Assembly: GCA_038874595.1 (NCBI GenBank)
Contig: JAVZCB010000003.1
Coordinates: forward strand, 1 to 64,000
Source: Candidatus Micrarchaeia archaeon
Lineage (GTDB): Archaea > Micrarchaeota > Micrarchaeia > CAILAH01
DNA: 64,000 nucleotides
Direction of reading: 5' to 3'
This document shows, piece by piece, positions 32,641-55,484 of this stretch (the stretch's first letter is position 1; each line of letters starts with the position of its first letter). The notes beneath the pieces were generated by a model. The model was not told where the DNA came from and ran no database searches. It saw nothing but the letters and a program-made list of their open reading frames with translations. Made by a program: the position numbers and the translations under genes.

Positions 32641-32932
32641 TCCCGCCGGGCGGATTTTCAGGTTTGCAACTCACTTGCAGTGTGCTGCAAAGGGCAATGC
32701 AATTGCCCTTCATTTGAACCGTCAACCTGCCGGTCACCGCGGAAGGGGTAACTACCCCAGCACATTCGCATGAGCGAATGGTGCATCGTTTGGCTTCACC
32801 AAACGCTATCCGTTCTGTGGCCTAACATAGCCTACTATGAGGCTTAGCAGGCCACACAACCCTAACATCGTTTTTAGTTTCCCAAAAACGATCCAACTAC
32901 AGCCGGCCGCTCTACCGTTGAGCTACAGCGGG
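32641..32932 (-). tRNA. tRNA-Tyr(GTA) with two introns (37/38: 32735-32896; 59/60: 32655-32712)
   Basis: Exons join to CCCGCTGTAGCTCAACGGTAGAGCGGCCGGCTGTAG|ACCGGCAGGTTGACGGTTCAAA|TCCGCCCGGCGGGA; C1-G72 Tyr identity; BHB-like junctions. Confidence 0.9.
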
Positions 32933-54789: not shown

Positions 54790-54987
54790 AGCGCCGAGGA
54801 GGAGACCTGGAGCTGTGCTGCAGGGTTTTTACCGGAGGTAAAACTCTGAGGCGCTCACCTATATATTTATCCATAAAAAAAGCGCCGAGGAGGAGACCTG
54901 GAGCTGTGCTGCAGGGTTTTTACCGGAGGTAAAACTCTGAAGCGCTCACCTATATATTTATCCATAAAAAAAGCGCCGAGGAGGAGA
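54790..54987 (-). repeat. 91-bp tandem repeat x2, each unit ending in the tRNA-Ser 3' exon
   Basis: GCGCCGAGGAGGAGA at 54791, 54882 and 54973 (the last is the tRNA itself); units nearly identical. Confidence 0.93.
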
Positions 54988-55243
54988 TTTCCATTGCAGC
55001 CAGCACTAAAGACAGCCGGCGATGCAATTTGAACTCCTAACCCCGTTAGGGGATACGCTGTCCTTTTTCTTTCGGTTTTTCGCCTTCGGCGAAAATCCTA
55101 AAGAAAACCGAAACTAAAAGAAAGAGACAAATCTCTTTCTTTGGTCTCGGGTTCCCTTTCTTAGGGAATGGGATTATAGGAGAAGATATACATCCTCACC
55201 TATACTCCAGGCGTACGCGTTAACCGGGTTCCGCCACCTCGGC
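54974..55243 (-). tRNA. tRNA-Ser(GGA) with two introns (37/38: 55060-55204; 59/60: 54988-55027)
   Basis: Exons join to GCCGAGGTGGCGGAACCCGGTTAACGCGTACGCCTGGAG|AGCGTATCCCCTAACGGGGTTAGGAGTTCAAA|TCTCCTCCTCGGCG; long variable arm, G73; usual position upstream of rps13. Confidence 0.88.
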
Positions 55244-55342
55244 GTAGGGAGCCGGCGCCCCCTACCACCCCGGCAACCGAAGCTGTAGGGAGCCGGCGCC
55301 CCCTACCACCCCGGCAACCGAAGCTGTAGGGAGCCGGCGCCC
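55244..55342. repeat. 41-bp GC-rich tandem repeat x2.4 abutting the tRNA-Ser 5' end
   Basis: GTAGGGAGCCGGCGCCCCCTACCACCCCGGCAACCGAAGCT at 55244 and 55285, partial copy at 55326; GTAGGG/CCCTAC stem. Confidence 0.93.
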
Positions 55343-55484
55343 ACACTTTTGCGCCTGCAAAAGGTGCCCGCAAACCACTCGGTTTGCTTGGCTTACATCT
55401 CTCTTGAAGATGCCTGTTGCGCTTATATGGCGATAATTGGATTTAATAAAGCTTAAATTAGTTGCAATGCTCTTTTGTGCTTAT

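Follow-up and report, generated by a model that had tools for sequence, protein, structure and literature searches.

Relaxed splice motif and repeated intron modules in a tRNA-Ser(GGA) gene of a Micrarchaeia archaeon

How can a tRNA intron be excised if half of the helix expected at its splice sites does not form? This question was raised by a gene in the window, a stretch of 64,000 nucleotides from a Candidatus Micrarchaeia archaeon whose genome (G000; 918 kb in 7 contigs) was assembled to 93.5% completeness. The minus strand at 55243-54974 encoded a class II tRNA-Ser(GGA) interrupted by two introns. The initial annotation had described a 145-nt intron at site 37/38 and a 40-nt intron at site 59/60, and both were confirmed at these coordinates. 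It had also pointed to the same insertion sites in tRNA-Tyr, and the Tyr gene at 32641-32932 did contain introns at both, with its helix (CUGU/GCGG) intact. Gene coordinates on the minus strand are labelled "pre" below (window position = 55244 - pre), and the gene was organized as follows.

55205..55243 (pre 1-39), minus strand: exon 1, tRNA positions 1-37, 3' end ...CUGGAG
55060..55204 (pre 40-184), minus strand: intron 1, 145 nt at site 37/38, four hairpins in series
55028..55059 (pre 185-216), minus strand: exon 2, positions 38-59 including the long variable arm
54988..55027 (pre 217-256), minus strand: intron 2, 40 nt at site 59/60, hBH motif
54974..54987 (pre 257-270), minus strand: exon 3, positions 60-73, discriminator G73, without encoded CCA
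54966..54973, minus strand: a C and a run of seven T directly 3' of G73, read from the sequence

The unspliced gene was missed both by ARAGORN with default settings and by Rfam at gathering thresholds. Once the two introns were removed by a script, the exons of 39, 32 and 14 nt were called by ARAGORN as an 85-nt tRNA-Ser(GGA) with a perfect 7-bp acceptor stem, a long variable arm, the T-loop UUCAAAU and G73. The cloverleaf was flawless and included U8 and G18G19. Judging by its sequence, the C and T run after G73 likely functions as an archaeal terminator. The gene also appeared to be the only one of its kind: the serine family of this genome consisted of GCU (C2:58873), UGA (C4:78948, with a T-loop intron only) and the present GGA gene, and our check for a second Ser(GGA) gene found none in the 93.5% complete assembly. 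The codons UCU and UCC made up 25% of the serine codons in 356 long reading frames of the genome.

The shorter intron was ordinary for this lineage. It formed an hBH motif with a complete central helix (UUCA/UGGA, 4/4 pairs), the 5-bp T-stem as the outer helix and the bulges AA|U. Its cuts could slide along an A-run, and the motif (H 4/4, h 5) was found only in the 59/60 register. The paralogous Ser(UGA) gene of the same genome had a T-loop intron of the same kind.

The long intron was a different matter. For a 37/38 intron, we took the last two intron bases and base 38 as the 3' bulge, and paired positions 32-35 with intron positions -3 to -6 as the central helix. Intron 1 then read uacgc CUGG [AG|U] ... 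AAGG [AC|A] gcgua, and its 3' end included the following feature.

55060..55065, minus strand: AAGG as 3' helix strand and AC as bases 1 and 2 of the 3' bulge, both contributed by the tip of the repeated element described below

The initial annotation had stated that this end (AAGG-AC|A) pairs with only two of the four anticodon-loop bases CUGG. This was correct in the canonical register, where C32-G and U33.G were paired and G34 and G35 both faced an unpaired A. The outer helix h, that is the anticodon stem, had the 6 bp that suit a strict hBHBh' motif. Lacking the 4-bp central helix, the intron nevertheless fell outside both the strict hBHBh' and the relaxed hBH (BHL) definitions. There was also no inner helix h' contiguous with AAGG, since the 3' strand of hairpin 1 lay about 110 nt before it. 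The bulges [AG|U] and [AC|A] were correctly placed only if the weak helix formed, and in the minimum-energy fold the 5' cut site sat in a 1x1 mismatch. No shifted pair of cuts yielded an identical mature sequence. The description of this intron as concatenated hairpins held in full, with every hairpin listed earlier present in the minimum-energy fold. The intron alone folded at -61.6 kcal/mol (z = -8.2), and none of 200 dinucleotide shuffles was as stable. Visual inspection of the long intron revealed no C/D boxes.

A trivial explanation would be that an error in sequencing or assembly masked a normal helix. We considered this extremely improbable because contigs from two sequencing runs of two studies covered 54958-55262 and 54958-55234 with zero differences, so that the gene was identical throughout, and a second genome of the same genus (G001) had the same AAGGAC|A end. 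An error of this kind, put forward earlier as a possible refutation, was therefore discarded. A single metatranscriptome of the same study (n=1) did not cover the gene, which says nothing about its expression.

We then asked how the helix of intron 1 compared with the other anticodon-loop introns of the genome. Removal of candidate T-loop introns and a repeated ARAGORN run gave a larger tRNA catalogue, and 24 anticodon-loop introns were scored in a register fixed by the 5-bp anticodon stem, U33 and a purine at position 37. The anticodon names given by ARAGORN were often shifted for intron-bearing genes. Accordingly, the "Ser gga" call at C2:115085 was reassigned to Thr(GGU) and the "Cys gca" call at C3:128966 to Arg(GCG). 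Four central-helix pairs were found in 11 introns, three in 9 and two in 4. By position, the pair 32:-3 was present in 22 of the 24 introns, 33:-4 in all 24, 34:-5 in 20 and 35:-6 in 13. By chance, the last pair would be expected in about 9 of the 24. The inner helix h' was absent from 15 of the 24 in the strict register. Thus, the two proximal pairs were essentially invariant, and Ser(GGA) stood at the far end of a continuum, without one pair that was usually kept. The other two-pair introns belonged to Arg(GCG) (205 nt), a gene with the anticodon CGG (288 nt) and Thr(CGU) (38 nt). The first of these, in the tRNA-Arg(GCG) gene at C3:128966-129245, had internal duplications and ended in AAGG[AA|A].

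The degenerate helix could also mean that the gene is decaying or already dead, in which case UCU and UCC would be decoded by tRNA-Ser(UGA) or by another Ser(GGA) gene that the assembly lacks. The incompleteness of the assembly (93.5%) would allow for the latter, and the orthologue in G001 had A8 and an A12.C23 mismatch. However, the exons of the present gene formed an intact cloverleaf (U8, G18G19, T-loop and G73), a T-run terminator followed directly, both predicted splice-site bulges and the strong helices flanking them were preserved, and the two codons were in common use. Moreover, three other tRNA genes of this genome had a two-pair helix, and therefore all of them would have to be dead as well. 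We regarded the loss of this gene as unlikely.

If the gene works, its splicing depends on the endonuclease. The single EndA gene of the genome was located at C7:1-733, where it ran off the start of the contig and was crossed by a 10-N gap; these two features made the N-terminal unit (residues 1-150 of PDB 4FZ2) unreadable. The remainder (C7:3-733) aligned to residues 151-262 and 264-387 of 4FZ2, the epsilon2 enzyme of ARMAN-2, with E values of 4e-44 and 3e-40. In the readable part, a beta-like unit came after an alpha catalytic unit within one polypeptide, and this enzyme type agreed with the placement in Micrarchaeia. In the epsilon2 enzyme, roles have been assigned to the catalytic triad Y236/H251/K282, Y160/K161 of the ARMAN-specific loop (ASL), the bulge clamps R275/W384 and K228, and these residues hold the bulge in the 2025 RNA complex (PMC12397907). 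In the alignment, the host enzyme was identical to 4FZ2 at all of them (Y160/K161, Y236/H251/K282, K228, R275 and W384). It has been reported that ARMAN-2 EndA cuts both the strict hBHBh' and the relaxed hBH motif in vitro, each substrate having a 4-bp helix (PMC3239211). The genome thus appears to encode an orthologue of this broad-specificity enzyme with its RNA-contacting residues kept.

The comparison with ARMAN-2 (Candidatus Micrarchaeum acidiphilum; Fujishima 2011, PMC3239211; Miyata 2025, PMC12397907) was close in several respects. The two organisms belonged to the same phylum-level lineage and shared the enzyme type with its catalytic and ASL residues, and both had tRNA genes with several introns, including some at 59/60. 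The T-loop intron of the present gene was of the hBH kind cut in vitro. On the other hand, the ARMAN-2 substrates had a 4-bp helix where the present long intron had two standard pairs, its inner hairpin lay 107 nt away from the helix strand, and the intron was 145 nt long and built of repeats in comparison to 13-25 nt in ARMAN-2. The initial annotation had proposed a very relaxed endonuclease, an alternative fold or a nested intron. Among these, a very relaxed endonuclease appeared to be the best supported, given the epsilon2 type of EndA and the three further two-pair introns.

Where did the mismatched helix strand come from? In a DNA search of 40 related genomes, pre 120-188 turned up as a repeat, and the last ~65 nt of intron 1 proved to be one copy of a repeated hairpin element.

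55060..55127, minus strand: element copy, consensus start YCUUUCUUUUAG and end AAAGAAAAAGGAC; the 5' boundary is approximate

When a copy close to the consensus was used as the query, about 20 copies were recovered, distributed over 4 of the family's 9 genomes. Aligned copies started with YCUUUCUUUUAGUGUCGGUUUUCUUUAGGAU, continued with a variable GC hairpin and ended with AAACCGAAAGAAAAAGGAC. In G000 and G001, sense copies met the 3' splice site of Ser(GGA) with their GGAC tip; the same position was taken in Ser(UGA) of G002 and, in G006, in Ala(UGC), Thr(CGU) and Thr(UGU). The 3' element was therefore present in Ser, Thr and Ala introns, that is in non-orthologous hosts, with 75-100% identity to a G006 copy. 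Copies in antisense orientation bordered on either a tRNA 3' end or, in Arg(UCU), Ile(GAU) and Gly(UCC) genes, the 5' splice site; a small number of copies were intergenic. In the tRNA-Thr(UGU) intron of G006 (locus L147 on contig C42, ~170-315), two copies were arranged in tandem; only the last one ended in GGAC, at the splice site, and the inner copy ended in GGGC.

All introns with a sense copy ended in AAGG[AC|A]. Since the AAGGAC tip was invariant at the 3' splice site, the helix strand was AAGG regardless of the anticodon. The GG of the tip paired with positions 32-33 (C/U32, U33) in all five host tRNAs examined, and base 34 alone decided the rest: the helix had three pairs with U34 and two with G34 or C34. 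Half of the helix was thus absent from intron 1 because the intron ended in the fixed tip of a repeated element. The helix strand was therefore a constant part of this element that was not matched to the anticodon.

We also considered an origin of the element in an intron of tRNA-Lys(UUU), whose anticodon loop resembles CUUUUA|G. No support for this was obtained, as Lys(UUU) in the host genome had a T-loop intron only. A wide regular-expression search for such an origin returned noise, and a scan of the genome contigs with a 15-base pattern gave only chance matches in bacteria. The conserved element ends offered another possibility, namely independent recognition of the two splice sites, with the 3' site relying on the element's own ends or an extra factor and the intron leaving in two pieces. 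Indeed, CUUU (pre 124-127) was able to form four pairs with AAGG (pre 179-182) beside the 3' bulge, and the 5' CUUUU and 3' AAAGG were present in nearly all copies, including a short version in G002. However, forcing the CUUU/AAGG helix cost +16.9 kcal/mol, both strands were invariant and left no covariation, and the matching inner helix was not conserved in consensus copies. The idea of a copied Lys(UUU) anticodon loop within the element was unsupported as well, that gene having no 37/38 intron in G000. Separate recognition of the two sites therefore seemed improbable to us.

The other end of intron 1 was also formed by a module.

55175..55204, minus strand: 5' module (hairpin 1, UAUAGG...CCUAUA), starting at the first intron base

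Hairpin 1, with pair probabilities of 0.8-1.0, would act as the inner helix h' beside the 5' bulge [A36 G37|U]. In the host genome, introns of Thr(CGU) and Val(CAC) also began with this pattern, UAURGG...CCYAUA, directly at the 5' splice site, as did those of Ser(GGA) and Ser(UGA) in G001, where G:C took the place of one A:U pair. The module was thus common to Ser, Thr and Val introns. A regular-expression search for it gave three tRNA matches, the remainder being mostly noise. The tRNA-Thr(CGU) gene (C1:28894-29130) had a 38-nt intron that consisted of the 5' module followed by AAAG[AA|A], with two pairs and no insertion.

Given these two modules, we asked which folds were available to the precursor. 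In the free-energy ensemble, UCC at pre 71-73 was the partner of the anticodon GGA, and the two proximal pairs had a probability of only ~0.005. When the anticodon stem and the two proximal pairs were imposed with open bulges, the best fold added G34-C73 and G35-C72, which involved the following bases.

55171..55172 (pre 72-73), minus strand: CC after hairpin 1, able to pair with G35 and G34; candidate distal half of a two-part helix

Such a two-part helix (CC plus GG, with C32-G182 and U33.G181) would have all four pairs, with pre 74-180 looped out between its segments, at a cost of +6.6 kcal/mol over the free minimum in a construct of pre 27-196. The alternative fold suggested by the initial annotation was thus feasible in the model as far as the helix was concerned. 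Its 5' side was less satisfactory, as the "bulge" lay opposite the unpaired A69 A70 U71 and formed a 3x3 internal loop with no true bulge. By eye, no equivalent of the two-part arrangement was found in the other introns bearing the element.

The segment between the two halves is also central to nested, two-step splicing, in which an inner intron leaves first and thereby rebuilds a 4-bp helix for the outer one.

55064..55170 (pre 74-180), minus strand: segment of hairpins 2-4, 107 nt; its own score is H 2, h 0, h' 0

Deletion of this segment produced a strict hBHBh' motif with a 38-nt intron and the helix CUGG/CCGG (H 4, h 6, h' 2), in which the strand was the same as in the distant orthologue L178 described below. 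In addition, removal of either BHB-like inner candidate (pre 121-180 or 125-180) would place UCGG beside AC|A, and at least two such solutions occurred in only 1% of shuffles. At least one solution, however, occurred in 10.5% of mononucleotide shuffles. The candidates rested on pairing between the U-run and the A-run, the helix of one competed with the anticodon stem, and the flanking bases that they required were absent from the G001 and G006 copies. The ends of the 74-180 segment itself did not form a motif (H 2, h 0, h' 0). We also discarded pre 131-179, where a strict inner motif was present, as its removal would restore no helix and other copies of the element did not preserve it. A permissive BHB scan of the whole precursor, suggested as a check on internal motifs, returned more than 150 matches and was uninformative alone because of the U-run and A-run tracts. 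The earlier proposal of a nested intron was consequently correct in that removal of pre 74-180 would rebuild the helix, and failed in that the segment was motifless and the inner candidates were not conserved. We rated two-step splicing as unlikely.

On balance, we lean, if only slightly, towards a working Ser(GGA) gene whose patchwork long intron would be excised in one step by the epsilon2 endonuclease through a relaxed motif. At the 3' site, the enzyme would meet the 6-bp outer helix, the 3-nt bulge [AC|A38] and the two proximal pairs C32-G and U33.G. At the 5' site, it would find the bulge [A36 G37|U] directly before a stable hairpin. Epsilon2 EndA would have to accept this two-pair motif, and the distal half of the helix would be either dispensable or supplied by C72-C73 after hairpin 1. 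In the latter variant, the 3' strand of the helix would be interrupted by a 107-nt loop of hairpins. The intron might have arisen from a short canonical one, as in the sister genera, that was expanded or overwritten by insertion of the element. Ser(GGA) was an extreme case of the relaxed tRNA introns known in this lineage and did not represent a new kind of splicing.

Relatives provided insights into this history. Exon 1 had an identical or near-identical counterpart in them, and orthologous Ser(GGA) genes from other genera had the following introns at the 37/38 site.

G007: intron 22 nt, strand CCAG, pairs 4/4
G008: intron 37 nt, strand CUGG, pairs 4/4
G006: intron 24 nt, strand CUUG, pairs 3/4
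L178 (metagenome locus): intron 12 nt, strand CCGG, pairs 4/4

These genes shared the intron site and the bulge positions with the host gene; in contrast, their introns were only 12-37 nt long and lacked the element. Other organisms of the same springs also had introns of 12 and 21 nt at this site. A metagenome search with a pattern of exon 1 plus the intron start gave no match, and a pattern of exon 2 found one distant orthologue, L178 with its 12-nt intron. Since the introns of the orthologues from other genera were short and had matched strands, the long degenerate form appears to be derived, and among the genomes searched it was present only in the genus of the host. The 37-nt intron of G008 (L005 on contig C67, ~1540-1576) contained words resembling C/D boxes (UGAUGC, CUGA and UGAGGA), and it looks too short for a guide RNA.

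Within the genus, the intron of the G001 Ser(GGA) gene measured 184 nt and shared both the 5' module and the AAGGAC|A end with the host intron. The exons of this gene were identical to those of the host gene at 81 of 85 positions, but it had A8 and the A12.C23 mismatch. Because of these two changes, its conservation was weak support for function, and the G001 gene may be less fit. This gene (L002 on contig C10, 77-345) had no T-loop intron and carried A8 in place of U8.

The distribution of the modules allowed a further hypothesis, which we put forward tentatively. The 3' element and the 5' UAURGG module might be self-contained mobile splice-site cassettes that can insert at the cut sites of tRNAs in both orientations. 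Each could bring half of the signal, namely GG for positions 32-33 and a hairpin from intron base +2. If so, such modules could introduce introns into any tRNA, or lengthen existing ones, whatever the anticodon, and epsilon2 EndA would need no more of its substrate than an outer helix, a bulge and two pairs.

Transposed tRNA introns are known from Thermoproteales (Fujishima 2010, as summarised in PMC4090602), where related intron sequence is found across tRNA genes. The present case was similar in that related intron sequence occurred in different tRNAs, implying that introns or their parts have moved. It differed from what that summary describes in that the unit was a module smaller than an intron, with a fixed tip, and was found in both orientations as well as in intergenic positions and at tRNA 3' ends. 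Again unlike the introns outlined there, the module brought a helix strand that was mismatched to the anticodon of its new host. What is new here is the cause: the intron is bounded on either side by a repeated module that lies precisely at the splice site, and the module at its 3' end overrides complementarity to the anticodon. Where a short canonical intron was replaced by a long one ending in such a module, the splice helix would therefore no longer be matched to the anticodon.

A 2026 census of Asgard tRNA genes offered no general route by which introns arrive (bioRxiv 10.64898/2026.10.13.758758), and Ser(GGA) provides a concrete, testable case for the arrival and growth of archaeal tRNA introns. 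It also poses a biochemical question for the structurally characterised epsilon2 endonuclease, namely whether two proximal pairs are enough. If they are, tRNA finders that rely on the motif would systematically miss such genes.

Repeats were also present on both sides of the gene. Downstream (window 54790-54973), there were two tandem units of ~91 bp, each ending in a copy of exon 3 (TCTCCTCCTCGGCG) and a T-run. Each unit contained TATAGGTGAG, which is identical to the first 10 nt of intron 1. In G001, one extra exon-3 copy followed a hairpin spacer (L002, ~400-450), and at L178 (420-490) the tRNA 3' end was repeated downstream. Upstream (window 55244-55340), we found ~2.3 tandem units of 41 bp, each with a hairpin GUAGGG...CCCUAC, the last of which adjoined position +1 of the tRNA. 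At the same place, G001 (L002, 52-75) had a different hairpin with the same GUAGGG/CCCUAC base. The sole AT-rich, TATA-like stretch upstream was TTTATTAAAT (window 55441-55450, minus strand). It was located ~200 nt before +1, implying a long 5' leader filled with repeats.
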